Source: an uncultured delta proteobacterium (lineage in GTDB: Bacteria > Desulfobacterota > Binatia > UBA9968). Taken from it: DNA of 64,000 bases. The translations under genes were made by a program, and so were the position numbers. A model generated the notes under the pieces. That model searched no databases and was not told where the DNA came from. It saw only the letters and a list, made by a program, of their open reading frames with translations. Positions 30,918 to 63,487 of the stretch are shown in pieces. The stretch lies in the NCBI GenBank assembly GCA_963816145.1, contig CAWFJP010000013.1:64001-128000 (forward strand), given 5' to 3'. Numbering within the stretch: position 1 is the stretch's first letter; every line of letters starts with the position of its first letter.

Positions 30918-30920
30918 AGA

Positions 30921-32040: not shown

Positions 32041-32049
32041 GATTTGCTA

Positions 32050-32138
32050 TCACCACGAAGGCACGAAGAGCACGAAGTTCGGAATTTTAATTGTCCGAAA
32101 CCTTCGTGACCTTCGTGACCTTTGCGCCTTCGTGGTGA
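32050..32138. repeat. CACGAAG/CTTCGTG inverted tandem hairpin, copy 1
   Basis: TCACCACGAAG GCACGAAG AGCACGAAG ... CTTCGTGAC CTTCGTGAC CTTTGCGC CTTCGTGGTGA between convergent genes. Confidence 0.85.
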
Positions 32139-32181
32139 AAATCTTGTTCAGTTACCCAGCGCAATAAGTCTAGCGCAAAGA

Positions 32182-33228: not shown

Positions 33229-33291
33229 CGTCGATGAACTCCTCCAATGACTTGTAGCGCGGTGGGTGCAGAGTCACAACCCCGGACGGCT

Positions 33292-34344: not shown

Positions 34345-34366
34345 CGCGGTGTTCTCCTCTGAGTTG

Positions 34367-41900: not shown

Positions 41901-44900
41901 CCAGTGCTGTCGAGTCGGTAACGTCAGTGACGATTCCACTTTCCCTATCAGCCCCTTCTGGGCTGACCGTCACGGTCGATTACGCGGTTACCGGAGGCAC
42001 GGCCACTGGTGGCGGGGTGGATTACACGTTGGCCGCGGGCACGTTGACTTTTACGCCTGGGGTAACCACGCAGAATATTCCTATCACTGTGGTGAACGAC
42101 ACGCTGGACGAATCGGACGAGACCATTCAGATTACCTTGTCCAATCCAAGCAATGCGATTCTCGGTGCCAACGCCGTTCACACCTATACGATCCTCGATG
42201 ACGACGCGACGCCGACGGTGGCTTTTAGCACGGCCAGCTCCAGCGGTTTGGAATCGGTGACATCGGTGATGTTGCCGATTACTTTATCTGGAGCATCCGG
42301 CCAAACTGTGACGGTGGATTATGCCGTTACGGGTGGGACGGCGACGGGCGGTGGAGTCGACTACACCCTGGCCAGTGGCACGTCGACGTTCACGGCAGGA
42401 ACCACTAGTCAGAATATTTCTATTACAGTGGTGAATGATGCCCTTGATGAGGCGGACGAAACCATTCAAATCACACTGGCCAATCCTACCAATGCGACGT
42501 TAGGCGTTAGTACGCTTCACACCTACACGATCACCGATGATGATACGCCGCCGTTGCTAGCTTTTGGTTCTGCTAGTTCGAACGGCTTAGAATCGGTAGC
42601 TACAGTAACTATCCCGGTAACCCTCTCTCCTGCCTCAGGTCTGACGGTGACGGTGGATTACGCTGTGAGCGGTGGCACAGCCAGCGGCGGCGGTGTCGAT
42701 TATACGCTGGTCAATGGGACGCTGACGTTCACGGCTGGAGTCACGACGCAGAATATTTCACTCACCGTGGTCAATGACACACTCGCCGAAGCCAACGAAA
42801 CCATCCAGTTGTCGTTGTCGAACCCGACCAACGGGACACTCGGAGCAACAACCGTGCATACGTATACGATTACCGACGATGACATTGCGCCGGCGCTAAC
42901 GATCGGCGATGTGACGGTCACAGAAGGAAACTCCGGCACGGTCAACGCCGTATTTACCGTAACACTGTCGGCAGCTTCGGGGCAGACCGTGACGGTGGAT
43001 TATGTCACGGCCAGCAATACTGCCACTGGCGGCGCTAGCTGCGCTGCTGGGATCGATTATGTCAGCACCAGCGGCACGCTCACGTTCACCGCAGGGCAGA
43101 CTACCAGGACGGCGACCGTGGCGGTATGCGGTGACACACTCAGTGAAGCGAATGAGACTTTCTTGGTCGATCTCAGCAATGCCGTCAATGCCACGATATC
43201 AGATAGTCACGGGCAAGGTACCATTACAGACGACGATGCGGCACCTACGGTGAGCTTATTGTTAGCGGGAGCGTCCATGGCCGAAGCCGGAGGCCTCGCG
43301 ACAGTTACCGCAACTCTGTCCGCCGTTTCTGCGCAAACGGTCACTGTCGTGCTGAGTTTCTCCGGCACAGCAACCTCGAATGTCGATTACAGTCCGTCGG
43401 CGGCCTCAATTGTCATTGGGCCGGGTAGTTTGAGCGGTAGCGTGACACTGACGGCGATACAAGATGCGCTTGTCGAAGGCAATGAAACGATAATTGTTGG
43501 CATGGGTGTGGTGACCAACGCAACGCCCACGGGCACGCAACAGGTCATGGCAACTATTATCGACGACGATACCCCGCCGATCGCCCTCAATCTCAGCATC
43601 GACGATGCACCAGATCCGGTCCAGGCCGGTGGGCAAATCACCTACATGCTAACGTACAGCAACCCGACGAGCGCCAATCAGATCGGTCCGGGCGCAACTT
43701 TGATTAGTGTATTGCCGGCGAACACGACATTCGTGTCAGCCAGCAACGGCGGGACCTACGCCACCGGGGCGGTGACATGGAGCTTGGGCGATCTGTCGCC
43801 GGGATCGGGCGGAACGCGAACGCTAGTCGTGCAAGTGGTTGCGCCGTTGGCGAATGGAACGGTGTTAACACATCAGGCAACGCTGCAGGATACCTTGGGC
43901 GATAGCGCCACGGCGAATCAAACAACCACGGTGCAAAACGCGGCGGCGCTCGCATTATCCATAAGTGACAGTCCAGACCCCGTGCCGGCGGGCGGGCAAA
44001 TCACCTACACCTATACGTTCAGTAACTTGTCGTCAGGGAATCAAACTGCGGTTGGGACGGTGATCGTGGTGACCTTGCCGAACGAGACAACTTTTGTATC
44101 GGCAAGTAATGGCGGCACGTTGGCCGCAGGCGTAATAAGTTGGCCGATCGGCAATCTCGCCCCCGGAGCCAGCGGTAGCCGAACCCTGGTGGTATTGGTC
44201 AATTCACCTTTGGCTAACGGTACATTGATAACCGAGGATGCGGCGATTCAAGACGCCGCCCTAAATAGCGCCAATGCCAACCAGACGACGACTGTTCACA
44301 GCGCGCCGTTGCTGTCGCTGACAACCAGCGATAGTCCGGACCCAGTGCAAGCCGGCGGTCAGATCACTTACACACTGACGTTCAGGAATTCGAGCAATAC
44401 CAATCAGACTGCATCGGCTGTGACGCTGACGAATACACTGCCAAAAAACACGACGTTTGTCTCGGCCAGCGACGGCGGTTCGCTGGCGGGCAACGCGGTT
44501 ACTTGGACGATCGGCAGCCTCGCTGCCGGCGCGTCGGGCAGCAGAACATTGGTGGTCAAGGTGGCTTCGCCATTGCCGAACGGCACGTTGCTTAACAATC
44601 TGGCAACCATTTCCGATAGCGCTGGTGGTAGTGCCAACTCTCAGATCATCACGACGGTGGGTGAGACGGGAGGCGTTGGTGGAGGTGGTATCGCGTCGAC
44701 ACCCACGACCTCAAGCGTGCCCAGCGCGTCGAGCTTCGCAAGTAGTGCAGCACCTACGCCATCGATTGCGCTCGAACCCTTCAGCGAAGCGCCTCCAGCT
44801 GAGCCAATTTCCAGGCCAGCGCCGGCGGTGCAGAATCAAATAACGAGTTTGCCGACTCGTACCCCAGACGCCTGTACGTCTACATCACACTTATCACTGG

Positions 44901-45646
44901 CTGCATCCCACACTCCCAAGCCGGCAATGGCCGCTGGGCAGATTACTTACACATTCACGTTCGCAAACCAAAGTTCCCGCGATACGGTTCGCAATGTTTA
45001 CTTGGTGAGCCGCTTGCCGGATGTAATGACCCCAGTCTCAGCGAGCAACGGTGGCGAAACGGCCGGCGGCGAGATTCAGTGGAACCTGGGAGACCTAATG
45101 CCCGGAGCCAGCGGCAAACGTACCCTCGTTGCGCAAATCGCGAGTCTTAACCCTGGCGCCACGATGCTCGCTAATAACCATGTTTACTTGGAGGACGGGC
45201 AAAGTCTATGCGCCCAGGCTATCGAAGCAACGACGATCAAGACTCCATCGTTGCTGGATAAAGACAACGATGGGTTCTCGGACGACGAAGAACTTAAATG
45301 CGGCTCGGATCCACGCAACAGTCAAAGCACTTGTTATGATCTCGATTTGTCCGAAAGCCATGTTCGTATACCGCGCAATTCGACTGCGACGATTACGGCG
45401 CGAGTACATACTTCGAAGCGATTTGCCGGCGCTGTCACTCTGGCGCCAGAAAACACTCTGCGCGGCGTGATGTGGCGCTTGTCGGAGCCAGTGGTGACGC
45501 TAAACACCGCGGCAAAAAATGCCTCGACGTTAATTACCCTACAAACCACCAGTACTACTAGCCTCGGGATACATCATGTGCCGATTTGGGCGCGCAGCGG
45601 CGCGATGGAGCAGATGAAGATCCTGCTTATCGAAGTCCTACCGTAA
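35984..45646 (+). CDS. Giant secreted Calx-beta/DUF11 repeat surface protein (putative adhesin)
   Basis: Signal peptide (AYA|A); T/G/N-rich beta region; about 18 Calx-beta-like repeats (GTAT...DY...D..DE..ET....TI.DDD); 4 DUF11-like repeats (D.PDPV.AGGQITY); DxDxDG.SD.EE motif near the C-terminus. Confidence 0.88.
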   Translation: MPQNRRKNFLKKSSLLLQKRACLLATCLVLTAFAFLSRAYAATITSAATGNWGTGATWVGGVAPVAGDNAVIANGHTVSLTAASSITDIIINNGGVLAGSTRRLTASGNYTNNGTHSGTGGVTLTGTNTTINGTGTTSNTGTFIVQTGNKSVAAAANLTIAGAITITGAITVTNNGTITGTSTSAMTGSVASSTWVNAVNATLNIAASAVLATGTLDAAANPNTVNYDRGGNQTIKGTTYHHLTVSTGGTKTAGAALTVNGDVTIGAGATLALGSFSHSFKASITNNGALTASTSTVTLNGSATQTISGSSATSFYNLTINNMNGISLSRAATVTRTLTFTSGNVMTGVNALTLSSTGSVSRTSGHVVGNFQKNIATGATSKTYEIGDATNYTPVSVVFGSVTVAGNLTASTAAGDHANIGATPIDSAKSVNRTWTMTNTGITFTNYSATFTFVPGDIDAGANTSNFGVGKYASGSWSYPTVGTKTATTTQMTGVTSFGDYQIGELPTVAFSATTSSGSESVTAVSIPVSLTPSASQTVTVDYAVTGGTATGGGVDYTFANGTLTFTAGQTSQNISLTAVNDTLDEVNETIQITLSNPVNAVLGANTVHTYTINDDDAVPTVTLSLTGSPMAEAAGVATVSATLSAVSGQNVTVNLSFSGTATLTSDYTRSGTSITIPAGSTTGSITLTAVQDSIDEANETIIVDISTVTNGTESGTQRVTATITDDDPVPTVTLSMTGGPMAEAGGVATVTAALSAVSGRSVTVNLSFSGTATLTSDYTRSGTSITIPAGSTTGSITLTAVQDSIDEPNETIIVDINTVTNGTESGTQQVTATITDDDAAPTVSLSLTGSPMAEAAGVATVIATLSAVSGQVVTVDLSFSGTATLTSDYTRSGTSITIPAGSTTGSITLTAVQDSIDEPNETIIVDINTVTNGTESGTQQVTATITDDDAVPTVSLSLTGSPMAEAAGVATVTATLSAVSGQDVTVNLGFSGTATINTDYSASAPSITITAGSTTASITLTAIQDSIDETNETIVVDIATVTNGTESGTQQVTATIVDDDAAPTVTLSLIGSPMAEAGGVATVTATLSAVSGQDVTVNLGFSGTATINIDYTASASSITITAGNTTGSITLTAIQDAVNEPIETIVVDITTVTNGTESGTQQVTATITDDDAAPTVTLSISGSTMAEAMGVATVTATLSAVSGQNVTVNLLFSGTATVTSDYTRSGTSIGIPAGSTTGSIALTAVQDSIDEPNETIIVDIDTVTNATESGTQQVSATITDDDPPPSVAFDVTTSSGLESVTPANLSVSLSTASGQMVTIEYAVSGGTATGGGVDYTLASGTLIFAAGQTNKMLPITIVNDALDEANETIQVTLANPTNATLGTNTAHTYTITDDDPPPSVAFDATSSSGSENVTSVNLPVSLSTASGQTVMVDYAVTGGTATGGGVDYTLAAGTLIFTAGTTTQNIALTVADDALDEANETIQITLSTPLNATLGANTVHTYTISDEDVTPTVAFNATTSSGAESVTAVTIPVSLSTASGQTVTIDYAVTGGTATGGGLDYTLAAGTLTFTAGTTSHNLAITVVDDALDEADETIQITLTNPTNATLGANAVHTYTINDNDTAPTVAFNATTSSGAESVTSVTVPVSLSAASGQTITVDYAVTGGMATGGGVDYTLANGTLTFTAGITGQNISITVVNDALDEADETIQITLANPSNATLGTNTAHTYTITDDDPPPSVAFDVTTSSGLESVTPANLSVSLSTASGQMVTIEYAVSGGTATGGGVDYTLASGTLIFAAGQTNKMLPITIVNDALDEANETIQVTLANPTNATLGTNTAHTYTITDDDPPPSVAFDATSSSGLESVASVNIPVSLAAVSGQTVMVDYAVTGGTATGGGVDYALANGTLIFTAGTTVQNIALTIADDGLDETNETIQITLSNPLNATLGTNTDHTYTILDEDTTPTVAFNGTTSSAVESVTSVTIPLSLSAPSGLTVTVDYAVTGGTATGGGVDYTLAAGTLTFTPGVTTQNIPITVVNDTLDESDETIQITLSNPSNAILGANAVHTYTILDDDATPTVAFSTASSSGLESVTSVMLPITLSGASGQTVTVDYAVTGGTATGGGVDYTLASGTSTFTAGTTSQNISITVVNDALDEADETIQITLANPTNATLGVSTLHTYTITDDDTPPLLAFGSASSNGLESVATVTIPVTLSPASGLTVTVDYAVSGGTASGGGVDYTLVNGTLTFTAGVTTQNISLTVVNDTLAEANETIQLSLSNPTNGTLGATTVHTYTITDDDIAPALTIGDVTVTEGNSGTVNAVFTVTLSAASGQTVTVDYVTASNTATGGASCAAGIDYVSTSGTLTFTAGQTTRTATVAVCGDTLSEANETFLVDLSNAVNATISDSHGQGTITDDDAAPTVSLLLAGASMAEAGGLATVTATLSAVSAQTVTVVLSFSGTATSNVDYSPSAASIVIGPGSLSGSVTLTAIQDALVEGNETIIVGMGVVTNATPTGTQQVMATIIDDDTPPIALNLSIDDAPDPVQAGGQITYMLTYSNPTSANQIGPGATLISVLPANTTFVSASNGGTYATGAVTWSLGDLSPGSGGTRTLVVQVVAPLANGTVLTHQATLQDTLGDSATANQTTTVQNAAALALSISDSPDPVPAGGQITYTYTFSNLSSGNQTAVGTVIVVTLPNETTFVSASNGGTLAAGVISWPIGNLAPGASGSRTLVVLVNSPLANGTLITEDAAIQDAALNSANANQTTTVHSAPLLSLTTSDSPDPVQAGGQITYTLTFRNSSNTNQTASAVTLTNTLPKNTTFVSASDGGSLAGNAVTWTIGSLAAGASGSRTLVVKVASPLPNGTLLNNLATISDSAGGSANSQIITTVGETGGVGGGGIASTPTTSSVPSASSFASSAAPTPSIALEPFSEAPPAEPISRPAPAVQNQITSLPTRTPDACTSTSHLSLAASHTPKPAMAAGQITYTFTFANQSSRDTVRNVYLVSRLPDVMTPVSASNGGETAGGEIQWNLGDLMPGASGKRTLVAQIASLNPGATMLANNHVYLEDGQSLCAQAIEATTIKTPSLLDKDNDGFSDDEELKCGSDPRNSQSTCYDLDLSESHVRIPRNSTATITARVHTSKRFAGAVTLAPENTLRGVMWRLSEPVVTLNTAAKNASTLITLQTTSTTSLGIHHVPIWARSGAMEQMKILLIEVLP
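39824..41526 (+). repeat. Apparently identical 347-bp direct repeat inside the giant gene (39824-40170 and 41180-41526)
   Basis: Manual comparison found no mismatches; offset 1356 bp (4 domains); two minus-strand shadow ORFs share identical N-termini. Confidence 0.85.
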
Positions 45647-47312: not shown

Positions 47313-48320
47313 TTACAAACCGAATATTTTCCGAAACTCCCGTGCGTGATCGTCCAGTCCTGAGTACACCTCTTTGGGTACCGCTTTCAACCTCAATTTG
47401 CTTTGATCCATTTTCGGGGCCAGCGGTTTGACGTCGCTGCGCGCCGGGATGCGGCGCATCTCGCGGATCATCTCCTGGCCTTTGCGCGAAGTCGCGAAGT
47501 TGATCAGCAGCTTGGCGGCATTGGGGCTGGTTGCCTTGGCGCTAAGCGCTATACCGCTGATGGTCACGACGATCGGATCGAAACTTTCGATCCAATCCAC
47601 TGGCGCGCCGTCACTCTTCATTCGTTCGATGCGGAAGTTATAGGCCCATGCCAATGGCACTTCGCCGGCGCCTACGAGTTGGGCGGTCAAGCCGTGGCCG
47701 CGGCGCCAGAGCGGATCTTGTTTTGCGAGCTGCTGCATGTACTTGACGGTTCTTTCCCGCCCCCACACCGTCATCAGCGTGCCGAACCAGTCATAGTCGG
47801 TGGAATCCATCAGCATCTGGCCTTTCCACTTGGGATGGAGCAAGTCGTCATAACTTTTCGGCGCCTCTTTGGCGGCGAGCATCTTGCTGTTATAGGCGAG
47901 CACCAGATTGTTGACGAAGACACCGGTCCAGTAACCCTGAGGATCTTTGAACTGATCAATAAATAGATCGCGATCCGGAGCGAGATAAGGCACGATCACC
48001 TTGCGCTCGATCATCGTCGCGATCGAGCTTGTCGATAGGACATCGAAAGCCCAGCGACCTGCGCGGATCTCGCTCAAGATGCGGTTTACCAATTGTTCCT
48101 CGCCCAATCGAACCAGTTCCGGTCTGATGAACGGGTACTCTTTAACAAAGGCATCGAGCAACGGCTTCGAAGTATCCACCGCCATCGAAGTGTACCAGGT
48201 GAGTTTGCCTTCTTTCTTGGCGCCGTCGACGAGGACGGCTTGGGATTGAGCAAGCAGCGGGGTGGCGAAGGAGAGAATAATCAGAACCAATGGAGCGAAG
48301 GAATGTAAAGTAAATTTCAT
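47313..48320 (-). CDS. Extracellular solute-binding protein, close paralog of 15132-16151
   Basis: Shared WYTSMA, MLMDSTDYDWFGTL, WRRGHGL, KMDQ..L, EFR.IFGL. Confidence 0.88.
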   Translation of the reverse strand: MKFTLHSFAPLVLIILSFATPLLAQSQAVLVDGAKKEGKLTWYTSMAVDTSKPLLDAFVKEYPFIRPELVRLGEEQLVNRILSEIRAGRWAFDVLSTSSIATMIERKVIVPYLAPDRDLFIDQFKDPQGYWTGVFVNNLVLAYNSKMLAAKEAPKSYDDLLHPKWKGQMLMDSTDYDWFGTLMTVWGRERTVKYMQQLAKQDPLWRRGHGLTAQLVGAGEVPLAWAYNFRIERMKSDGAPVDWIESFDPIVVTISGIALSAKATSPNAAKLLINFATSRKGQEMIREMRRIPARSDVKPLAPKMDQSKLRLKAVPKEVYSGLDDHAREFRKIFGL

Positions 48321-48343
48321 GCTACTCCTCAAAACTCCTACGC

Positions 48344-48435: not shown

Positions 48436-49557
48436 TCACGCCCTTGGATACAATGCATCGATCATCAAGCGCTTATGATGTCCCGGCGTGCCGAGATACT
48501 GATAGAGCGTGTGGGCGAGCACGCTGTGCGCCATCATCGGGTGGCTGTAGTCCGTGCCCGGTCCGGCCCAAACCATATGCGCATAATTGGTGCCGTGATA
48601 GTAGCCGTCACTGGCGGTGGCTTTGGCCTCATGCGCGCCGGCGCGGGCGTCCACGCCATTCTCGATGCGCCAGATCGCTTCGTAGGTCGCCCAGCGCGCC
48701 ATGTCCAGGCAGATTGAAATATCGACGCAGTGATCCTGCACCCGTTGGAAACGGCCGATCGGTTGGCCGAAGACGACGCGGGTGCGGGTGTATTCACAGG
48801 TGAGGTCGAAAACTTCCTGGGTCGCGCCGACTTGATAGGCCGCCAGAATCGGCAAGGTCTTCGTCAACGCGGCATCGAGGGTTGCCCAGCTCGCGCCGCT
48901 GGTGCCGATCAAGCTGTCGGTCGTGACCGCGACGTTGTCGAAGCCCACTTCGAAAGCCGAAATCAAAAAGCCGATCAACGGTGTCACCGTGACGCCCGGG
49001 CTCTTGGCGTCGACTAATAAGAAGACGACGTCGCCTTCCTCGCTGCGCGCTGCGCACAAGAAGTGGGTCGCAGCGTCGGCGTCGAAGACAAACCGCTTGT
49101 TGCCTTTTAAGAGATAACCGTTGGCCATTTTGACCAGCCGGGATTCCACCGATTCCGGTCCCCAGTAGGCGGCTTTGTCGGTGATCGCCGGCACGACGAT
49201 CGAGGTGCCTTTGCACAGCGGCGGCAGCAACGCCTTGCGCTGCGCATCGGTTCCCGCGTCAAAAATCATCTGGGCGCTTAATATGCCGGACGTAAACAGC
49301 GGACCTGGCACAGGGCCGTGGCCGAGCGCTTCGAATACCACCGCGCAGTCCATTGTCGACAATCCAGCGCCGCCGAATTCCTCCGGCAACATCATGCCCA
49401 GCCAACCGAGCTCGGCGGCTTTCTTGATGATCTCCGGTCTAAAGATCTTCTTGTTTAGAAACCATTGGGTCATTTGATGCGCCGGCACTTCCGCCTTGAC
49501 GAAATCCGCCGCAACCTTTTTCAACATTTCTTGGTCTTCAGTAAGTCCTAAATCCAT
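48436..49557 (-). CDS. Acyl-CoA dehydrogenase, probable beta (non-catalytic) subunit
   Basis: LTEDQEML, ELGWLG..LPEEFGG, G.KRFV, R.VFGQPIGRFQ. Confidence 0.85.
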   Translation of the reverse strand: MDLGLTEDQEMLKKVAADFVKAEVPAHQMTQWFLNKKIFRPEIIKKAAELGWLGMMLPEEFGGAGLSTMDCAVVFEALGHGPVPGPLFTSGILSAQMIFDAGTDAQRKALLPPLCKGTSIVVPAITDKAAYWGPESVESRLVKMANGYLLKGNKRFVFDADAATHFLCAARSEEGDVVFLLVDAKSPGVTVTPLIGFLISAFEVGFDNVAVTTDSLIGTSGASWATLDAALTKTLPILAAYQVGATQEVFDLTCEYTRTRVVFGQPIGRFQRVQDHCVDISICLDMARWATYEAIWRIENGVDARAGAHEAKATASDGYYHGTNYAHMVWAGPGTDYSHPMMAHSVLAHTLYQYLGTPGHHKRLMIDALYPRA

Positions 49558-52519: not shown

Positions 52520-52927
52520 ATGAACTGGCAAGAAGCACTCCCGCTGTTACAGAATAATCACACTGGTGTCGCGGCTACGGTCACGGCTAAGGGCCGTGCG
52601 CAGGCAACTATCGTATCGACGGCTGTGTTGGACGACAAAGTCGGCGTCGCGGCGCGGCCGCGCACCGTGAAAGAGAGAAACATTGCACGGACGGGCCGAG
52701 CGGCTATCACGGTCATCAAGCTCGACAACCGGCGCTATGTCACCGTCGAAGGCCCGGCGTCCATCGAGCCCTGGCAGGACACGCCGGCGCATATCAAGCG
52801 CTTGAAGGACTTTTACGTTTCGATGGGACGAGCCAAGGGGACTGATGAGGAATTTGCCAAACAGATGCGCGAGGAACAGCGCACCCTGATTCTTGTTACC
52901 CCCGAGCACCTCTATGGCAGCGTTTAA
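52520..52927 (+). CDS. PPOX-class (putative F420-dependent) split-barrel protein
   Basis: ATV...GR.Q, K.RNI.R, YVTVEG, M..EQR; RBS GGAGG. Confidence 0.8.
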   Translation: MNWQEALPLLQNNHTGVAATVTAKGRAQATIVSTAVLDDKVGVAARPRTVKERNIARTGRAAITVIKLDNRRYVTVEGPASIEPWQDTPAHIKRLKDFYVSMGRAKGTDEEFAKQMREEQRTLILVTPEHLYGSV

Positions 52928-52997
52928 GCAAGAGCCCTAACGCATTTCCGTTTCGTCCGCCGAAGGGTTTGGGTGATTGGGTATTTGACTCAAACCG

Positions 52998-53080
52998 CCG
53001 CGCCAGCAACGCTGCTGATCGCAGAGGATGTCATCGCAGGAGGCAATTCTTTAGCGAAGATCACGGCGGTTGCAGCGCGG
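52998..53080 (+). other. Long imperfect RNA hairpin upstream of the AhpD-like gene
   Basis: Nested pairings CCGCGC/GCGCGG, GCAAC/GTTGC, GCTG/CGGC, TGATC/GATCA and AGAGGAT/ATTCTTT, with several G-U pairs that form only on the + strand. Confidence 0.45.
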
Positions 53081-53115
53081 TACTTGCAGCATCGGTGGAA
53101 ACAAAGGGACAGCTT

Positions 53116-53706
53116 ATGGCCAGGATCAAAGGTGTAACCGAATCTAATGCCAATGATGACGTGCGGCAGATTATCGCCGAGCAGAAGAAACGTCATGGTT
53201 TTGTCTCAAACGCGGCGCAGGTGTCCGCCATAAGGCCGACCATTCAGCAGGGAGTTCAGGCGCTTGCCAAGGGAATTCAGGATTCAGGACTGATCGCGCA
53301 GGAACTGCGCAATTTGGTCTGCGTCAGGACCGCGCATATCAATGGTTGTCCGTATTGAATTGACAGTAATGCATCCGGGGCGATGCAAAACGGCGCAGCC
53401 GCGGAAAAGGTCGAAGCGGCTTTGGGCGATTACAAGAGGAATCCGTTGTTTTCCTTGCGCGAGCGGCTGGCGCTGGAGTTGGCGGAACGGATGACCTACA
53501 CCAGCAAGCGGGTCTCGGATAGGTTCTTCAAGCGGCTCAAAAAACATTTTAGCGACGAGGAGCTGGTCGAATTAGCCGCGGTGATCGCACTGGAGAACTT
53601 TCGCAGCAAGTTCAACCCGGTTTTTGCCATCGAGGCGAATCATTTTTGCTCTTTGCCGGGAATCATAGAAGCTGCTGCCGCCGCCACGCGGCGCTTCCAT
53701 GAGTAA
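53116..53706 (+). CDS. AhpD/carboxymuconolactone decarboxylase-like protein with CxxU; probable selenoprotein
   Basis: ...HINGCPY-TGA(53356-53358)-IDSNASGAMQNG... continues in frame into ORF 53383-53706 (FS.RERLALELAE.MT, HFSDEELVEL, NF.SKFN). Confidence 0.82.
53370..53387 (+). promoter_or_regulatory. Candidate bacterial SECIS element
   Basis: TGCATC-CGGGGC-GATGCA stem-loop starting 11 nt after the in-frame TGA. Confidence 0.65.
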
Positions 53707-53780: not shown

Positions 53781-54899
53781 TTAGTCCCTCAATAGGAACT
53801 CACCGGAAAATTTCACTTGCTCGTTCTCCGGCAACGGGTGATAGCGTGCCGCCTGAATGTCGCGGAACAGCCGCTCGAGGCCGAAGCTACGATAAAAACC
53901 GGCACCGCCGGCGATTTCCATCGCTTTGGTGACGACAGCGATGGCGGCGTTGGCGACATTGGTTTTCCGGGTCAGAATATCCTGACCGTTTTGATCCACG
54001 GCTTCGAATTCGTAATTCTCCGCGATGCGCAGCATGTCGTTCAACTGAACCTGGGCGGCGACCAAATCGTTGTGCAAAGTGCCGATCAAACCCGCCATTT
54101 GCGGCTTGGCGCTTTTTTGCCGTCGAATATGGCCGATCGCCAATTGCGCCGCTTTCTCGGCAATGCCCACATAGACCGACATGATCAGCGGCATCGCCAC
54201 GGTCAGGACGACATTCCAAACCGGATGATAGGTGCCGCGCGGCCGCTTGAGCGCGATGGCTGCGTCGGGCACGAAGACATTTTCCAGTTTAACGGTATGG
54301 GAGCCCGTGCCTCTCATGCCGAGGGCGCGCCAGTTGTTCAGTACCGTGACACCTTTGGCGTTCATCGGCACCGGGAAATGCAGCACCTCCCAGCCCCGTT
54401 CAGGGTCCATGTATGGCGCGCTGGTGATCAGCATGTCGCCTACCGCGGACTGACTGGCAAAATGTTTCTGCGCGCTGACCAGATAACCGCCGTCGGTTTT
54501 GCTCACCGTGCCGTTGGACTCGAGCCAATCGCCGGCGCCGGTGCTGACCAGCACGAGCTGTTTGTCGGCGACGTTCTTGAGCAGCGGCTCGCCGCCCTGG
54601 CCGCGCCGCCACTTCCAAATTGTCGCGGCGATCAGGTGCTGATGCATCGACAGCGCCAGTGCCGTCGAGCCGCAGTATTGGGCGAGGGTGCGCAGCATGT
54701 CGGCGATCTGGCGATGGGAAGCGCCGCCGCCGCCCAGTTCAGCCGGGATCGCCGCGCCGAACACGCGTGCTGCTTTGAGCGCGCCGTAGTTGTCGCTGAC
54801 AAAGCTGTCGCTCTCATCGCTCAGTTCTGCCCGGCCGGCGAATTCCTTGCCGAGACTATGGGCCACCTCGGTCCATTGAATTGGGTTTAACTGATTCAT
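53781..54899 (-). CDS. Acyl-CoA dehydrogenase / flavin monooxygenase family protein
   Basis: P.ELGGGG, STALALSMH, K.FAS, W..LGMRGTGSH, LERLFRD. Confidence 0.88.
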   Translation of the reverse strand: MNQLNPIQWTEVAHSLGKEFAGRAELSDESDSFVSDNYGALKAARVFGAAIPAELGGGGASHRQIADMLRTLAQYCGSTALALSMHQHLIAATIWKWRRGQGGEPLLKNVADKQLVLVSTGAGDWLESNGTVSKTDGGYLVSAQKHFASQSAVGDMLITSAPYMDPERGWEVLHFPVPMNAKGVTVLNNWRALGMRGTGSHTVKLENVFVPDAAIALKRPRGTYHPVWNVVLTVAMPLIMSVYVGIAEKAAQLAIGHIRRQKSAKPQMAGLIGTLHNDLVAAQVQLNDMLRIAENYEFEAVDQNGQDILTRKTNVANAAIAVVTKAMEIAGGAGFYRSFGLERLFRDIQAARYHPLPENEQVKFSGEFLLRD

Positions 54900-55000
54900 A
54901 ATCGACCTCCTCAAAAATTATTCTGCCGCTGAATATAATCTCCGGCGCCGATCGGTGCTTTGTTGAAAAGGCCGGAAGTTTGACTGAGCGGCTCTTTGAA

Positions 55001-55888: not shown

Positions 55889-56136
55889 CGGCGCTAGCCT
55901 CCTGCGGATATTTACGCGTTACCTGGGAAACTCACCACTCAATTATTTTGCTCTTTTGCCGGGGGCTTTCAAGTATCGGAGATATCGATGAGCGGGCACA
56001 AGCCGATCAGGTTGACAGGATCGCGGGTTAGCGCTTACTGTCGGCAAAAGTGACGACGGTGCGGCGCAGGTTTCGCATTCGACGGTGCGCGCCCGCGCGG
56101 CGCTAAATTCAACTCGACCAAACCGGAGGTATTCCC

Positions 56137-56766
56137 ATGATGACGCTTTTTTTCAGTCCTGGTGCTTGCTCTTTGGCTTCGCATATCGGTCTCGAAGAAA
56201 CCGGCGCGCCCTATGAGCTCAAACCGATCTTGCTGACCAAGGGGCAGCAGCGCACCGCGGATTATCTGAAGATCAACCCGCGCGGTAAAGTGCCGGCGCT
56301 CAGCGTCGACGGCAAGATCCTGGTCGAGAACACCGGCATACTCACATACCTGGCGCGGAGGTTCCCGGACAAAAAGCTGCTGCCGGCCGATCCTGCCGAG
56401 GAAGGGCGCTGTGTCGGTACCATGTGCTGGTTCTCCAGTGTCGTCCATCCGTCGTACCAGCGCTTCCATCGCCCCGAGCGTTTCGCCGACAGCGAAGTGG
56501 CGCACGCCGCGGTCAAGGAAAACGGCAAGAAGTCGTTTTGGGCCAATCTCCAGGAGATCGACTCGATGATCCAGGCGAACGGCTGGGTCATGGGCAAAGA
56601 TTTCACGGTCGTCGACGGCTACGCGCTGGTCTTCTACGGCTGGGCGAGCCGCAGCGGCATGCCGGTGACAGAGCTCAAATCGTACACGGCCTGGCGCGAG
56701 CGCATGATGCAACGACCGACAGTCAAGAAGAGTGTCGAGAGTGAGGAAAGCGTTTCGACGTCATAG
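56137..56766 (+). CDS. Glutathione S-transferase (beta-class-like)
   Basis: SPGACSLASHI.LEE, YLKINPRGKVPAL, G..FT.VD. Confidence 0.92.
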   Translation: MMTLFFSPGACSLASHIGLEETGAPYELKPILLTKGQQRTADYLKINPRGKVPALSVDGKILVENTGILTYLARRFPDKKLLPADPAEEGRCVGTMCWFSSVVHPSYQRFHRPERFADSEVAHAAVKENGKKSFWANLQEIDSMIQANGWVMGKDFTVVDGYALVFYGWASRSGMPVTELKSYTAWRERMMQRPTVKKSVESEESVSTS

Positions 56767-56898
56767 TTGGGTAGCGTTTTCTCCACCTCGACGTCCGTTA
56801 AGAAATTGGCCGGGATTGCCAGATCGTCGAATTGCTTGAGTCTGACGCAGTTTGCCGGCGCAGGTTCGACGGCGATAGGCCCAAACGGAGGAAGCAAA

Positions 56899-57969
56899 AT
56901 GGCTCGGCGCAGCTGGCCGGTTTTATTCGCGGCGGTGATCGCTTCGGGTTTGTTTTTAGCAAGCCGGCCGGTGTTCGCCCAGGAGCCATTTTACAAAGGC
57001 AAGACCGTTCGCTTGCTGGTTAATTATCCTGCCGGAGGAGCCACCGATGTGGTCGCCAGGCTGGTCTCGAGATATTTGGGCAAGCATCTCGCCGGCAATC
57101 CTACGGTCGCGGTTCAGAACATGCCCGGCGGCGGGGGCAATGTCGGCGCCAACTATGTGTACGAGGTCGCCAGTGCCGACGGCTTGACCGTCGGAGTTTT
57201 CTCCGGCGGCTATTTGCCGCAGATCCTCGGCGGCGCCGGCGTGCGCTTTGATCTCAACAAAATGCCGATGATCGCGGGGGTCGGCGAGACCTCGGTGGTG
57301 TACATTCGCGCCGATACCGGGGTCAAAGGCCCCGGTGAAATTCTCAAACCGGCCAAGCCGATCGTCATCGGCGGATTCACCCGCGAGAGCAACAAAGATC
57401 TGGCGTTGCGGATGGCGCTCGATCTTCTCGGCGTGCCTTACCGTTACGTGACCGGCTACGCCGGCGAAGCCGACCTCCGGCTGGCCGTCCAGCGGGGCGA
57501 AATCAATTACACTTCCGAGGGTCTTACCGGCTATACCATGGGCGGCGCCTTGATGGCGCGAGAAGGTGTCGTGGTGCCGATCTATCAAGACGGTTTGACC
57601 GGACCCGATGGAGAGATCGTTCGCGATCTACGCGCCGACCTGCCGACGTTCAAGGAATTCTTTCGAGCGGCGAAGAAAGCCGATTTCTCTGGGCCTTTGG
57701 CCGACGCCTTCAAGATTTCCGGAGCGGTACGTAGTCTCGGCAGGTTTGTCGTCGCGCCACCGAAGACGCCGGCGACGGCAATCGAGACGCTGCATAAAGG
57801 TTTTCGCGAGACCTTTGACGATCCGGAATTCAAGGCGGAGGCGGAACGCGTGTTGCGATTCCAATTGGTGAGTTTTGTCGGCGAGGACGCGGCCAAGGTT
57901 AACACTGCGGTGTTTCGCGCCGCTACCGGACCGGTGCGGGAAGCCCTGCGAAAGATGACTCAGGAGTAA
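56899..57969 (+). CDS. TctC/Bug substrate-binding protein
   Basis: RBS GGAGG, signal peptide MARRSW; FYKGKTV, PAGGATD, QNMPGGGG. Confidence 0.88.
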   Translation: MARRSWPVLFAAVIASGLFLASRPVFAQEPFYKGKTVRLLVNYPAGGATDVVARLVSRYLGKHLAGNPTVAVQNMPGGGGNVGANYVYEVASADGLTVGVFSGGYLPQILGGAGVRFDLNKMPMIAGVGETSVVYIRADTGVKGPGEILKPAKPIVIGGFTRESNKDLALRMALDLLGVPYRYVTGYAGEADLRLAVQRGEINYTSEGLTGYTMGGALMAREGVVVPIYQDGLTGPDGEIVRDLRADLPTFKEFFRAAKKADFSGPLADAFKISGAVRSLGRFVVAPPKTPATAIETLHKGFRETFDDPEFKAEAERVLRFQLVSFVGEDAAKVNTAVFRAATGPVREALRKMTQE

Positions 57970-58171
57970 GCAGCGCACGAAAGTATCTTATCTCGGAATG
58001 TTGACGCCGGTTGAGAGATTGACTCGACGATCCAACGCGCCGGCTGGGTCATGGGTCAAGAGTTCAAATTTTGGCTCCATGATCTACCGGGCTCGATTTA
58101 TAGCGGTTCATCGGCAGGATCACGGCAAAAGACTTGCCGCAGGCAGGAAGTCTCATATCTCGGAGGTGCAT

Positions 58172-59272
58172 ATGAAACGCGACAAGCCCAAATGGCGGGT
58201 GTTTCGGCAAATATCTCTTCGCTCCGCATTTGGCGCGCCACTGCTCGGTCTTTGCTTTGATCTCTTCATGGCCGGCATTGCTTTTCCGCAAGCTTCTTTC
58301 TTCCAGGGGAAAACCGTTACCATCCTTGAGAGTAGCGCGCCAGGGGGAGTCGGCAGCATGCGGACCAAAGCCGTTGTGCCTTTTCTCCAGAAGTATATTC
58401 CGGGAAATCCCACCATTGTGATGCAGCACATGGACGGCGGCGGCGGACGCAAGGCGGCCAATCACATTTATCAATCGGTCCGTCCGGACGGCCTGACCAT
58501 TGGCCGTATGTCGACGCCATTCGTGATGCATCCCATTCTCGGAGAGAGTGGAATTCTCTATGACATCGATAAAGTGAGCTATCTGGGCACCAGCTATAGC
58601 GGCGGCTACCATGTTTTTTTCACGCGCCGGGAATCGGGCCTCGACAGTCTAGAGAAGCTTCGCGCGGCTTCAGGTTTGAGAATCGGTTCCCAGTCGGTCG
58701 GGCACCTGATCTACATCTCCGGTCGAATGTTTGCGTATCTGATCGGCCTAAAACAACCGAGATTCGTCACCGGGTACAACTCACCCGAACTCGATGTCGC
58801 CATCGAGCAGGGCGAGATCGACACTAGGTCAACCGTGGCAGACGCACTCCTGCACGAGAAACCTCAATGGGTCGACAAAGCACAGATGGACTTCCACAGT
58901 ATCATCGAGGTTCCGAAAGGGCGGAAACACAGCCACCCGCACTTTGCCAGACTCCCTGACATCGAGAGCTTTGCGAGTTCGGCCATGGACCGGAAACTCA
59001 TCGGGCTGTACCGGGCGTTCATCGGCAGCGGCAACCCGCTAATCCTGCCTCCCGGCACCCCGAAAGACCGAGTCCGCATCCTGCAGGAAGCGATGCGCAA
59101 GACTTATCGAGACCCCGAGTTTGGCAAGGAGTATGCAAAGCTCACCGGCCTAAAGGCTGAACCGCAAATGCCGGAGGAACTGGAGCAAACGATCAGAGAT
59201 ATGCCGCGCGACCGGGAAGCCGTAGAGCTGTTCAAAAAACTCACCGGCCCGGACCCGCTACCGCAGAGGTAA
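58172..59272 (+). CDS. TctC/Bug substrate-binding protein
   Basis: RBS GGAGG; FFQGKTV, YIPGNP, RPDGLTIG, PPGTPKDRV. Confidence 0.86.
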   Translation: MKRDKPKWRVFRQISLRSAFGAPLLGLCFDLFMAGIAFPQASFFQGKTVTILESSAPGGVGSMRTKAVVPFLQKYIPGNPTIVMQHMDGGGGRKAANHIYQSVRPDGLTIGRMSTPFVMHPILGESGILYDIDKVSYLGTSYSGGYHVFFTRRESGLDSLEKLRAASGLRIGSQSVGHLIYISGRMFAYLIGLKQPRFVTGYNSPELDVAIEQGEIDTRSTVADALLHEKPQWVDKAQMDFHSIIEVPKGRKHSHPHFARLPDIESFASSAMDRKLIGLYRAFIGSGNPLILPPGTPKDRVRILQEAMRKTYRDPEFGKEYAKLTGLKAEPQMPEELEQTIRDMPRDREAVELFKKLTGPDPLPQR

Positions 59273-59385
59273 AGAGCCGATAACTTTCACCCGGTGGTGT
59301 ATTCAGTCATGCGGAAGAAACCCAAAGCGCGCGAAGAAACGATTTGTTTTCTGCGGCCATCAGCGCGCGACGAGGAGGAACAAAT

Positions 59386-59943
59386 ATGACCGCCGAACCC
59401 GAAGGCCCTCGCGTAGGGACCATAGGCCCGGAGTTTCACATCGCCACGGCTGCTGGCTGGCTGCCGCTGCGTCAGTTGGCCGCGCAATATAAGAAACTGG
59501 TTCTCACGACCCAAGATAGTTACCGATATCATCCAAACTGAGCCGCCAGCATGGCTGCTTCGTTGAAGCAGGATTATGCAAAAATTCTCAAGGCGGGAGC
59601 GGACCTCGTCATGATCTCGCCCGATTCTCTTGACGAGCATCGTCAATATGGGCTGACACTCTTCGGCGAGGAACTCCCCTATCTGTTTGTTTCCGACAGC
59701 GACCTCGACATAGCGCGGCGCTACGGCCTGCTCCGTGGCGAAGAGCATCACCACGGCGGTTTTTATTATCGCTCGCTCTGGGTACTGGATCGTGACGCTG
59801 TTATTGCGCACAAGAGCGTTCCCTGGGACGGCAACGCGCAGGTTGAAGAGTACCTGAAATTATTCACACTCATTGGCAGCGAACCGGGAGAATGGCGAGC
59901 CACCTGTGGCTTGAGACAGCCAGGAAATTTGCCTGCGAGTTGA
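59386..59943 (+). CDS. Peroxiredoxin/AhpC-TSA-like protein with in-frame TGA at the peroxidatic position; probable selenoprotein
   Basis: RBS GAGGAGG; VG..GPEF...LVL...HPN-TGA(59539-59541)-AASMAA continues in frame to GADLVMISPDS, LPY..VSD.D..IARRYG, RSLWVLD. Confidence 0.78.
59549..59579 (+). promoter_or_regulatory. Candidate bacterial SECIS element
   Basis: CTGCTTC-GTT-GAAGCAG stem-loop (59555-59571) 13 nt after the TGA, with a lower GCAT/ATGC stem. Confidence 0.6.
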
Positions 59944-60008
59944 AATCGAGGGGACAAGGCAATCCCGCCTTACACGTTTGAGGGCGTGTGCGTAGCCGGG
60001 CAAATACC

Positions 60009-60683
60009 ATGTGGACATATATCGGCCAGAAGCGGCCGCCTTTCGCCATAACACCGGGGCTCGGACAGGAGTCGGTGTGGGATTATCCGCGGCCGCCAAA
60101 ACTGATTGCTGAGCAGCGGCGCATTGTCGTTCGGCGCGGCGATCTGCTGATCGCCGACTCGCGTGAAAGTTATCGCATTCTGGAGACCGCGGCGCCGCCG
60201 ACTTTTTACATTCCACCGCGCGATGTCCATGTCGAACTGCTGCAGCCGTTTCCCGGCACGTCGATTTGCGAATGGAAAGGCGCGGCGCAGTACTGGACAT
60301 TGGCAATGGCGACATCGGCGCGGGAAGCGATCGGCTGGAGTTATCCGCAGGCGCAAGCGCCGTACGGCGCGATTGCAGATTTCTTTTCCTTCTATCCCGG
60401 CCGTGTCGAGTGTTTCGTCGACGGCGAGCGCGTGCGCCCGCAGCCGGGTTATTTCTACGGCGGTTGGATAACTGATGAAATTGTCGGGCCTTGGAAGGGG
60501 GAGCCGGGGACGGTTTGGCAAAGAAGTGCCGCATGGCGGGACAACGTCCCGTGGTTACTCGTTGGAGCGGCTGCTTGTTATCTTGTCAGGCTTACTTGCG
60601 GCAATCGCCTTGAGCACCTCTTCGGCCACTACCCGGTGACCCGCTTCGTTGTAATGGCCGAAAACACCAAAAGGAAACAGTGA
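60009..60683 (+). CDS. DUF427 family protein, copy 1 (native stop lost, aberrant C-terminal extension; possibly a pseudogene)
   Basis: QESVWDYPRPP, LET...P.FYIP, CEWKG.A.YW, FYGGWIT; near-identical to 62972-63476 up to 60513. Confidence 0.7.
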   Translation: MWTYIGQKRPPFAITPGLGQESVWDYPRPPKLIAEQRRIVVRRGDLLIADSRESYRILETAAPPTFYIPPRDVHVELLQPFPGTSICEWKGAAQYWTLAMATSAREAIGWSYPQAQAPYGAIADFFSFYPGRVECFVDGERVRPQPGYFYGGWITDEIVGPWKGEPGTVWQRSAAWRDNVPWLLVGAAACYLVRLTCGNRLEHLFGHYPVTRFVVMAENTKRKQ

Positions 60684-62102
60684 CAAAGGGTCTTTCTGAG
60701 CGTAAAAGCCTTGGAGAGTATCCACAATCGAAACATTTGACGCACGCGCCGCTGTATTAATCAGCGCGCGCTCTTGGTCAAGTAGCGGTGATCTCGAACC
60801 AAATCGTTTCCAAGTGGGAAGGTAGACGAGGTGAAGCTTGCCACCCCATTCTCCGACACGTTTGTTCGCCCGGGCTAGAATATCACCGAACAGTCTTATG
60901 TTAGCATTGTCTAAGCCAGACAAGGTCTCGGCTTGCCGTCCGTAAACTAATCCTAATTTACTCCTCACCCTGTTAAACTTTATGGCGTCGACAATCGTTT
61001 TCAACTTATTATCCGGGGGACCCTCCACATGAGCCGCCTTTCCCCGGAACAGTTCCGCTTCCGAGTAGCTGGTGAGAGCTTTGTCGATGTCACTTTGACG
61101 GGATATCAGGCCCTGGTCGAAACCATCTTCCATATAGCGCATCGCTAGCTGGCTCTTGCGTTCATATTGCAAGTATTCGAGATCGATTCCTTCCAAATAA
61201 AACCAAAGAACAATCTCCGGCCTAAGATTAGTCAAGTATTCGTTAATCGCCCCGAGCTGCTTTAGGGGGCCTTCTCCAGAGAAGCCGAGATTGAGCGTGG
61301 CCGGATACTGTTTTCGAACGAGATCAACGAAATTCTTGCCTGCAGGAGCGCAAAAGCCCTGCACAAAGGATTGACCCAATGCCGTGATCTTCACCTGACG
61401 CGAAGACCAGATTCCACGAGGGTTATTAAATCCACGCTCGTCACTTTTGTAACTGGTGAAACTTCCCGTTTGATTACAGGCGATCGTTAGCTTGTCAGAG
61501 ATTCCACCCATAGGAATCAGTTCCGCATGGTTTACCTCAAGCTGCGACCGGATGCTGCCATCAGGCCGTTCTTCCATGAATCTGGTACCCACAAAGGGCG
61601 TAGCGTCGATACCCAGCGTTCGCAAGTCCGTAATTACGGTAGATATATGTCGAGTATCGAAATCAACGCCAGCCTGTCTTGCCATCATGAGGATACGTCG
61701 TTTCTGCTCTGATCCCGGTCCGAATCCCCAGTACGGCAACTCCGTTGCGACGTTTTCCCCGTGAGCCAAAAGCATTTCTCCTACCCACGCCAAAGTCAAA
61801 ACCCCGCCTAAGAAACAAGCGACTGCAAGTTTGTAAGCACGTTTAAGTCGAAGCGACAGAAAGAGCAAAACGCTGATAGAAACTGGAACAAACCGGTAAA
61901 GAAACCCACCGCCAACACCCGTAAACGACCGATTACGAAGCCAGTCATAGTGATAAAAAATATATAGAGCAACAAAAGCCGCGGCCGCGCCGCCCCCGGC
62001 CAAAACGGAATCGACTACTTTTGTCTTATTTGTCGAAACATTTCCTATTACACCATTCAGCATAGTTCGAACGAGTGATTGGGTTTTTGATGGGATATTC
62101 AT
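60555..62102 (-). CDS. Membrane-anchored SGNH/AlgX-like protein
   Basis: Three N-terminal hydrophobic segments; SDERGFNN, LGQSF..G, NLG..G.GP, GHYNE.GH; visibly lower GC. Confidence 0.7.
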   Translation of the reverse strand: MNIPSKTQSLVRTMLNGVIGNVSTNKTKVVDSVLAGGGAAAAFVALYIFYHYDWLRNRSFTGVGGGFLYRFVPVSISVLLFLSLRLKRAYKLAVACFLGGVLTLAWVGEMLLAHGENVATELPYWGFGPGSEQKRRILMMARQAGVDFDTRHISTVITDLRTLGIDATPFVGTRFMEERPDGSIRSQLEVNHAELIPMGGISDKLTIACNQTGSFTSYKSDERGFNNPRGIWSSRQVKITALGQSFVQGFCAPAGKNFVDLVRKQYPATLNLGFSGEGPLKQLGAINEYLTNLRPEIVLWFYLEGIDLEYLQYERKSQLAMRYMEDGFDQGLISRQSDIDKALTSYSEAELFRGKAAHVEGPPDNKLKTIVDAIKFNRVRSKLGLVYGRQAETLSGLDNANIRLFGDILARANKRVGEWGGKLHLVYLPTWKRFGSRSPLLDQERALINTAARASNVSIVDTLQGFYAQKDPLSLFPFGVFGHYNEAGHRVVAEEVLKAIAASKPDKITSSRSNE

Positions 62103-62971
62103 GAAGTTTAATTTATGTTTGATATTACTGACGTTCTAACCGCCTATGCGAGGGATTACATTCCATTTTGTAAGCGATCGCTTACGGGAAAGATAATGCT
62201 CAATCAAATGCAAACCTGAAACTTTCACACTAATGAAATTGCGGCTCGGCTAAAGAATCTTTTTACGGATCTAATGCGCCTGTGCTTTAACTTCCGCAGC
62301 GTCATCGAAGCGCGATCTCCGAAGCTATCAGAACGGCGATTTAACCTTTTTGGAATTGAGCCGAGCGACTGAACAAAAGCTGACAAAATCACTCCTCATT
62401 CGACGTAGCAGTCAGTTGTATCGTAAGATTCATATCATAAAATACCGTGCTGTTAAAAAGCTATCTGAAAACACAAACTGCTCGATAGTATAAATCGTCA
62501 CGTGAGGATAAATCTGGTCGGTCCGATGAGCGACTTTGTCAAGCAGCCCGCTTTCGGCTTAATGCTGACCAATGACTCCAACGTTGAAAATCTGTCTGTA
62601 TCGGCTGATATTGCAGTGCCGTCCACTTAGACTTCGGAGCTGATGCCACGCTAGTAATTTTCCAGACAGCTCGCGCTACATTTGTTGTAACGGCCTTACC
62701 TGATCTGCATACCGGCATGCTCAGGTCGGACACGAGAAATGACTTCATGATCGAGGGGTCGCGCCTGAGTATCGACTTGAACCGTCCGCCGAATCAGAAA
62801 AGTGTACAAAGAGAACAGAGCGTTTCAGCGTAATCTGAATATCGCAATTTCATGCCGCCGACGGGAGTTTAAAACATTTTGCTTGCATCGTCGTCGCCGA
62901 ATCGCCGAAGCGAAGATGCGTTCGGATTTGGCTTCCGAGGGCGTGTGAGCTAACCGCCCTAGCAATAAAAC

Positions 62972-63487
62972 ATGTGGGTTTATACCGGCCAGAAGCGGCC
63001 GCCTTTCGCCATAACACCGAGGCTCGGACAGGAGTCGGTGTGGGATTATCCGCGGCCGCCAAAACTGATTGCTGAGCAGCGGCGCATTGTCGTTCGGCGC
63101 GGCGATCTGCTGATCGCCGACTCGCGTGAAAGTTATCGCATTCTGGAGACCGCGGCGCCGCCGACTTTTTACATTCCACCGCGCGATGTCCATGTCGAAC
63201 TGCTGCAGCCGTTTCCTGGCACGTCGATTTGCGAATGGAAAGGCGCGGCGAAGTATTGGACATTGGCAATGCCGATATCGGGGCGGCAAGCGATCGGCTG
63301 GAGTTATCCGAAAGCGCGGCCGCCATACGGCGCGATTGCAGATTTCTTTTCCTTCTATCCCGGTCGCGTCGAGTGTTTCGTCGACGGCGAGCGGGTGCGC
63401 CCGCAACCGGGTTATTTCTACGGCGGTTGGATAACTGATGAAATTGTCGGGCCTTGGAAGGGGGAGCCGGGGACGGAAGGGTGGTAG
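62972..63487 (+). CDS. DUF427 family protein, copy 2 (intact)
   Basis: Same motifs as copy 1; ends GP.KGEPGTEGW-stop. Confidence 0.85.
   Translation: MWVYTGQKRPPFAITPRLGQESVWDYPRPPKLIAEQRRIVVRRGDLLIADSRESYRILETAAPPTFYIPPRDVHVELLQPFPGTSICEWKGAAKYWTLAMPISGRQAIGWSYPKARPPYGAIADFFSFYPGRVECFVDGERVRPQPGYFYGGWITDEIVGPWKGEPGTEGW

Follow-up and report, generated by a model that had tools for sequence, protein, structure and literature searches.

A probable CxxU selenoprotein of the AhpD/CMD fold, split at its UGA codon by gene callers, on a Binatia contig

Gene and gene calls

The DNA analysed here (the window) is a stretch of 64,000 nucleotides, positions 64,001 to 128,000 of the forward strand of contig CAWFJP010000013.1 (GenBank assembly GCA_963816145.1), from an uncultured delta proteobacterium assigned by GTDB to the Binatia (Desulfobacterota; UBA9968). 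On its plus strand, at 53116..53706, lies a gene of 196 codons plus a TAA that we describe as a complete selenoprotein gene, of the AhpD/CMD fold and related to YciW. The ATG at 53116-53118 is the start and the TAA at 53704-53706 the stop, and the frame between them holds one in-frame stop only, the TGA at 53356-53358 (plus strand, codon 81), which we read as selenocysteine (Sec, U). Read through, the frame gives a 196-residue protein containing ...AHINGCPY-U-IDSNASGAMQ..., with the redox motif C78-P-Y-U81 (CxxU) encoded at 53347..53358 on the plus strand. The UGA is followed on the same strand by an 11-nucleotide spacer (53359..53369; codons I82-D83-S84 plus part of N85) and then by a hairpin resembling a selenocysteine insertion sequence (SECIS) at 53370..53387, with its stem at 53370-53375 / 53382-53387 and its loop, CGGGGC, at 53376-53381.

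Translation table 11 divides this frame into two open reading frames (ORFs), 52969..53358 (80 amino acids from the ATG at 53116) and 53383..53706 on the plus strand (107 amino acids), the second of which is actually residues 90-196 of the selenoprotein. A preliminary description of this DNA had taken the two predicted ORFs for one frame broken by a single TGA, and its coordinates and translation proved exact. The N-terminal sequence MARIKG agrees with the starts of four homologues (P0002-P0004 and P0124), and the protein databases display the split that the same description had expected of standard annotation. A word-indexed protein search returned 619 matches, and 109 of the best 120, which we inspected, are exactly 107 residues long, from Met90 to the end; one NCBI record names this piece 'hypothetical protein'. 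In an exhaustive search of 1.84 billion protein cluster representatives, those close to the gene were fragments, either ending at residue 80 (...NGCPY) or beginning at residue 90, and the nearest full-length representatives were at most 41% identical. Four JGI proteins from short contigs (P0002, P0003, P0004 and P0006) carry a tryptophan at the Sec column and extend beyond the normal C-terminus; we infer that this residue reflects gene calling in the style of table 4, in which TGA is given as W, and we do not count it as biological evidence.

Conservation of the UGA codon

GTDB r232, scanned with one genome for each species, yielded 416 relatives, of which the best 80 were examined. These 80 loci (L numbers below) come from 69 assemblies and encode proteins 57-92% identical to that of the window; the taxon names attached to them are the submitters' unverified labels. 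All 80 loci have TGA at the aligned codon and none has TGC or TGT, so that the lack of conservation among homologues, which the preliminary description had named as counter-evidence, was not seen. Candidatus Binatia is the label of 29 loci and 'delta proteobacterium' or Deltaproteobacteria that of 34, followed by Chloroflexota, Dehalococcoidia or SAR202 (5), Thermodesulfobacteriota (4), Syntrophobacter(aceae) (3), Verrucomicrobiia (2) and one each of Eisenbacteria, Acidiferrales and Proteobacteria. In a search across loci for TGA positions common to several of them, the selenoprotein family alone came out, with 81 of 81 sequences, the other clusters being shadow frames. No convincing candidate for a second selenoprotein was found among the TGA-interrupted frames of the window or of the flanks. 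Two TGA-bearing copies occur in 11 of the 69 assemblies, most pairs with one copy per subclade (L002/L058, L003/L039, L006/L033, L001/L047, L007/L055, L008/L035, L009/L054, L011/L071, L017/L022, L042/L070 and L063/L067), which suggests that the family was duplicated after gaining Sec or that both copies retain Sec.

A lone in-frame stop in an intact gene resembles a fresh nonsense mutation, as in a pseudogene, or an error of sequencing or assembly. The identical TGA in all 80 loci, down to 57% identity, with the N-terminal and C-terminal halves both conserved around it, makes this explanation scarcely credible.

Conservation also bears on whether the gene could make two polypeptides, an 80-residue N-terminal piece and a 107-residue piece started at the ATG at 53383, which would assemble as a split AhpD-like protein. 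Such an arrangement agrees with the output of gene callers, and 76 of 80 distinct sequences do have an ATG 8 codons past the TGA. At the protein level the 8 intervening codons (+1 to +8) are nevertheless conserved: none of the 80 distinct sequences departs from D83, N85, A86 or S87, and the segment aligns with matching residues of the unsplit cysteine homologues. From this pattern, translation evidently covers the codons from the TGA to the next ATG. Met90 is replaced by alanine in L077-L080, the four loci farthest from the window in sequence (three labelled Dehalococcoidia/SAR202 and one Chloroflexota), so there is no conserved restart codon, and this loss together with the conservation of the intervening segment counts against two polypeptides. 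Splitting would moreover delete the catalytic residue, and the sole G-rich run upstream of the ATG ends 2 nucleotides before it, which we judge too near for a ribosome-binding site. We regard a split protein as very improbable.

The residue that corresponds to U81 in more distant proteins was determined from an alignment of 28 full-length homologues, 30-41% identical to the window protein. The column holds cysteine in 27 of them and arginine in one, and the first cysteine, C78, is retained in 25; the CxxC of the solved AhpD-core proteins likewise aligns at C78/U81. The TGA thus stands where the second cysteine of CxxC is found in these homologues, as had been proposed from the motif NGCPY*ID. 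Among the members examined, the clade itself seems to lack cysteine forms.

The hairpin downstream of the UGA

Eleven nucleotides after the TGA, TGCATC (53370-53375) and GATGCA (53382-53387) form a perfect 6-bp inverted repeat around the loop CGGGGC; the 6-bp stem with a G-rich loop that had been described from the window is confirmed. Taken alone the hairpin has a free energy of -7.1 kcal/mol. A competing GC-rich fold (UCCG...CGGA) spans 53374-53405 of the window and is the minimum free energy (MFE) structure there. The RNA of L001, which differs from the window by one base across 54 nucleotides, folds into the SECIS-like hairpin.

Relatives were compared in an ungapped alignment of 42 nucleotides counted from the TGA, comprising 81 sequences, 74 of them distinct. 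Of the 518 cells of the helix that joins columns 15-21 to columns 26-32, 87.6% are paired, and shifting the 3' partners by 1-3 columns lowers this proportion to 20.7-55.0%. Five core pairs, from columns 16-31 to 20-27, are formed in 74 of 74 distinct sequences. Two of them vary in composition: pair 18-29 is AU in 58, GU in 12 and GC in 4 sequences, and pair 19-28 is UA in 70 and UG in 4. Constraint was also observed at synonymous sites. Three four-fold degenerate third positions fall within the stem, and they are occupied by A 63 / G 17 (0.75 bit), by C in 78 of 80 (0.19 bit) and by G in 80 of 80 (0 bit), compared with 0.94-1.93 bits at the other four-fold sites in codons -40 to +44 (n of at least 40). 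Synonymous positions that are nearly frozen in this way indicate that selection acts on the RNA and not on the protein. The loop reads AGUG in 61, GGGG in 14, GGUG in 3 and AGGG in 3 of the 81 sequences, its positions 2 and 4 being always G.

In E. coli fdhF the SECIS consists minimally of a 17-nucleotide upper stem-loop, 11 nucleotides after the UGA, with the loop GGUC and a bulged U. The hairpin of the window clade is similar in lying within coding sequence 11 nucleotides past the UGA and in presenting G(U) in a small apical loop. It differs in having no bulged U, a loop of AGUG or GGGG and a stem of 5-7 bp. The spacing and the G-containing loop fit the features of bacterial SECIS elements.

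Use of TGA elsewhere in the window

TGA terminates 10 of the 52 window ORFs of at least 200 amino acids that end at a stop. Six genes with Pfam support end in TGA (5152-5889, 13458-14087, 15132-16151, 17209-18231, 32182-33228 and 48436-49557), and in the three that were checked the Pfam model ends near the end of the protein (DLH at 5152-5889, isochorismatase at 13458-14087 and Amidohydro_2 at 17209-18231). With TGA ending at least six Pfam-supported genes of the window, there is no global recoding, and the codon is an ordinary stop in other genes, as the preliminary description had stated.

Protein family and fold

The match of the protein to PF02627 (CMD) covers residues 41-104 and, at 41.9 bits, exceeds the gathering score, which is 23. 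Among the curated NCBIfam models the best-scoring is NF053654 ('YciW-related (seleno)protein', also labelled 'GroundWater_YciW'), which is matched end to end, over model positions 1-173 of 179. An AlphaFold2 model built from 32 sequences is all-helical and reached a predicted local distance difference test (pLDDT) score of 95.8 and a predicted template modelling (pTM) score of 0.91. In this model U81 lies in the first turn of the helix formed by residues 79-91, and C78 just before it.

Of full-length structures, a Foldseek search returned the 'peroxidase-related' proteins 2prr (template modelling (TM) score 0.78-0.81), 2pfx and 2oyo, the tetrabromopyrrole debrominase Bmp8 (6ohi/6ohj, 0.77-0.78) and Deinococcus radiodurans AhpD (6k40, 0.75-0.81), with identities of 17-29% over the listed matches. 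The solved chains nearest to the protein in sequence are PA0269 / P. aeruginosa AhpD (2o4d, 2ijc, 7xw1) and Atu0492 (2gmy). All of these AhpD-core proteins share the all-helical core and a CxxC at the position of C78/U81, but they carry cysteine instead of Sec.

Gene neighbourhood

Pfam identifies a PNPOx-like gene (PF01243) upstream of the selenoprotein gene, at 52520..52927 on the plus strand, and a convergent acyl-CoA dehydrogenase gene at 53781-54914. The neighbouring genes also encode an AraC-type regulator, a CoA-transferase and more acyl-CoA dehydrogenases. The PNPOx-like gene is found upstream in 5 of the 80 loci, directly in L001, L002, L005 and L006 and about 2.4 kb farther up in L070; being kept in so few, it tells little about function. 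In a paralogue clade (63-67% identity), same-strand ORFs of one cluster lie directly upstream in 20 of the 80 loci (L031, L033, L035, L039, L040, L042-L050, L053, L058, L063, L067, L071 and L073), about 1250 to 260 nucleotides before the TGA, and the one representative scanned, from L044, is an Amidohydro_2 protein (PF04909). Genes for an Asparaginase_2, a putative cyclase or a sulfotransferase are present farther upstream in some loci of this clade. No peroxiredoxin-type Pfam domain was detected in 44 window ORFs or in 10 recurring neighbour clusters, each scanned through one representative. Consensus scans for promoters and terminators gave nothing above the expectation from shuffles.

These surroundings, together with a structural relative, raise the possibility that the protein is a true selenoprotein working as a metabolic reductase, for instance a reductive dehalogenase like Bmp8 or a redox helper in catabolism, and not as an antioxidant. 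Bmp8 is a CMD homologue that removes bromine, according to a passage in a review (PMC7918430). This CMD-family reductive dehalogenase is a full-length homologue of the window protein (profile E 5.3e-30, single-sequence E 6.5e-8, TM score 0.77) with a CxxC at the same position. The window copy stands amid acyl-CoA dehydrogenase, CoA-transferase and PNPOx-like genes with no peroxiredoxin gene beside it, and in the paralogue clade the gene directly follows the upstream cluster ORF that is Amidohydro_2 in L044. However, Bmp8 is about 20% identical, was compared by overall homology, has cysteine in place of Sec and belongs to a natural-product cluster, and the solved structures nearest to the window protein are mostly of 'peroxidase-related' or AhpD proteins. 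The Amidohydro_2 linkage belongs to the paralogue clade and not to that of the window, and the synteny of the window copy is confined to the 5 closest loci. We consider a metabolic reductase an unlikely alternative.

Other features of the window were recorded alongside. A giant ORF of 3220 residues at 35984-45646 (plus strand), in which Calx-beta is matched 18 times, DUF11 three times and a bacterial TSP3 repeat once, probably encodes a large adhesin-like protein that is secreted or lies at the cell surface. Genes for periplasmic solute-binding proteins are unusually numerous in the window and make up 11 of the 44 ORFs scanned (five NMT1/THI5-like and six of SBP_bac type, at 4167-5144, 14097-16151, 28579-35416 and 47313-48332); the same families occur around related loci. 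An 803-residue ORF at 9189-11600 (plus strand) has two stretches of CoA-transferase family III, apparently a fused double domain. Seven successive ORFs of 174-515 amino acids at 56035-63406 went unmatched in Pfam at E up to 1e-5, and one of them (56767-57966) shows only a weak match to TctC, at 1.1e-4.

Discussion

The results describe one 196-residue protein of the AhpD/CMD fold, from the YciW/COG2128 branch, in which the second active-site cysteine is replaced by Sec, and we give this interpretation a probability of roughly 0.87. The preliminary description had likewise proposed a 196-residue AhpD/CMD-like Sec enzyme here, and this finds support in the conserved TGA, in the cysteine found at that column in homologues, in the constraint on the stem-loop at the RNA level, in the predicted AhpD-core fold and in the use of TGA as a stop elsewhere. 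Decoding of the UGA as Sec is very likely, the assignment as a thiol/selenol oxidoreductase somewhat less firm though still probable, and a specific antioxidant role, in reducing hydroperoxides or in concert with a peroxiredoxin, falls just short of an even chance.

Several observations weigh on the other side. In the window, the MFE structure of the 50 nucleotides after the UGA is a different one, with a z-score of -1.37 (20 of 200 shuffles as good); the hairpin is not beyond chance from the window sequence alone, and is convincing only through comparison with relatives. Among these, 46 of 77 distinct sequences, not all, have the five core pairs in the MFE structure of the 54 nucleotides. The outer pair 15-32 is unpaired in 35 of 74 sequences (UA in 24, CG in 13 and UG in 2 of the others) and pair 21-26 in 29 of 74 (C-C in the window; elsewhere CG in 44 and GC in 1). 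Covariation is modest, with three pairs showing double changes, a count matched by 138 of 500 shuffles, and the stem sits within conserved coding sequence; the constraint on synonymous sites is the stronger argument of the two. No Rfam match was obtained for the window at gathering thresholds or for 53250-53500 at E up to 10. As regards the decoding machinery, ARAGORN detected no tRNA in the 64-kb window, a small part of the genome, and Pfam no Sel-type domain in 44 of its ORFs. Of the 8 tRNAs in the 80 loci, which total 1.03 Mb and cover a tiny part of each genome, none is tRNA-Sec, and crude short motifs for SelA and for SelB-type GTPases matched nothing in the window or locus DNA, which is a weak test; samples this small do not amount to a negative for the genomes. 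The protein also misses the cut-offs of both nearest curated models, with 156.5 bits against 310 for NF053654 and 61.8 bits (positions 2-162 of 178) against 81.8 for TIGR01926 'peroxidase-related enzyme'. Asn85 aligns with a histidine of PA0269, four residues after the second cysteine (CAYCVNMH). Lastly, the neighbourhood points to no clear function.

With no Sec machinery found in the window or in the related loci, the UGA might be read as a standard amino acid, tryptophan, cysteine or glycine, by a near-cognate or suppressor tRNA, the hairpin stimulating read-through. The four JGI calls that give W at this codon would fit, but we attribute them to table-4 style calling. The column is that of the catalytic cysteine of CxxC (27 of 28 homologues), for which tryptophan or glycine is no substitute, and although TGC and TGT are one mutation away from TGA, neither is found in any of the 80 loci. 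The spacing and the G-containing loop match features of bacterial SECIS elements, and other genes of the window terminate at TGA. Taken together, this leaves read-through by a standard residue improbable, if less so than a split protein.

The scores on curated models place the clade more precisely within the family. All 10 clade representatives tested reach 132-168 bits on NF053654, far under its cut-off; on TIGR01926, 8 of 10 score 42-64 bits and the other two are unmatched at E up to 1e-10. Being homologous to the AhpD-like families but under both nearest NCBIfam cut-offs, the window protein belongs to a separate clade of an established selenoprotein type. No curated equivalog covers this clade, which by these scores appears to be a sister group of NF053654 and not a member of it. 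With the AhpD-like family (COG2128/YciW; TIGR01926) it shares the fold, a CxxU motif with Sec in second position, the wide occurrence of cysteine homologues and a stem-loop that directly follows the UGA; it differs in the TIGR01926 score, in the TGA carried by all 80 members examined and in its composition, mostly Binatia or 'delta proteobacterium' with few Chloroflexota labels.

A likely course of events can be outlined for a selenoprotein of this kind. With the UGA at 53356-53358 in the ribosomal A site, the hairpin at 53370-53387 would recruit SelB, GTP and Sec-tRNA(Sec), as in the established bacterial pathway, and selenocysteine would then be inserted instead of termination at the UGA. 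The U81 selenolate would attack an oxidised substrate, be it a peroxide, the sulfenic acid or disulfide of a partner, or conceivably an organohalide. C78 would resolve the adduct into a selenenyl-sulfide, which a cellular reductant would reduce again. We infer the dependence on SelB and the actual insertion of selenium from the bacterial pathway, and the part played by substrate and reductant from CxxC/CxxU redox chemistry.

A histidine four residues past the second cysteine is part of the proton relay of classical AhpD, and in mycobacterial AhpD the second cysteine is the attacking residue. In the window clade residue 85 is asparagine in 80 of 80 sequences, and the same column is divided between asparagine (11) and histidine (7) among the 28 distant homologues. 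With Asn85 in place of the histidine the classical relay is not evident. Classical AhpD of the mycobacterial type, a peroxiredoxin reductase, would further be marked by a linked ahpC/peroxiredoxin gene or a lipoamide-dependent partner, and no neighbouring peroxiredoxin gene was found here. The missing histidine may be tolerated, since at neutral pH a selenol has mostly lost its proton. Reduction of hydroperoxides or of a peroxiredoxin would be the default function, with a metabolic role as the main alternative. More specifically, the Sec-only clade could be a selenium-dependent metabolic reductase, either using the Bmp8/CMD scaffold as a bacterial counterpart of the Sec-containing deiodinases or serving as redox partner to the Amidohydro_2 enzymes with which it is linked in 20 of the 80 loci; we think this unlikely, and a little more so than a metabolic role in general. 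If a metabolic role did hold, the selenolate would make the AhpD relay histidine dispensable, and selenium would be tied to carbon catabolism in an uncultured Binatia lineage.

Selenoproteins of this type have a long record. AhpD-like CxxU selenoproteins (COG2128/YciW) and CxxU selenoproteins containing a CMD domain were reported in 2005 from the Sargasso Sea metagenome (PMC1088965), the first description of the AhpD-like family, and the preliminary description was right to call such proteins known. The Global Ocean Sampling (GOS) data contained 299 genes of AhpD-like 1 and 70 of AhpD-like 2 (pfam02627), according to the family counts of that survey, which rank them among the most abundant families (PMC2398784). 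Family lists in reviews include AhpD-like (TIGR01926; COG2128 YciW), CMD-like (PF02627), NF041238 and NF041047 selenoproteins (PMC13188914, PMC9312934), and BSepDB carries a page for the AhpD-like family (PMC13326102). The gene of the window is a genuine selenoprotein gene of this established type, which will not surprise a specialist, and it leaves general knowledge of selenoproteins unchanged.

What it adds concerns the lineage and its annotation. Selenocysteine use is implied in metagenome-assembled genomes labelled Binatia or 'delta proteobacterium'; in the literature we found no printed mention of selenocysteine or selenoproteins in Binatia, and of two papers that name Binatota together with a seleno- term, one has that term only in an entry of its reference list. 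The mis-annotation is systematic. The NCBI pipeline has no model that calls this clade as a selenoprotein, and a dedicated model would mend hundreds of gene calls. Finally, a Sec clade seemingly free of cysteine members offers a tidy case for the study of the replacement of cysteine by selenocysteine.

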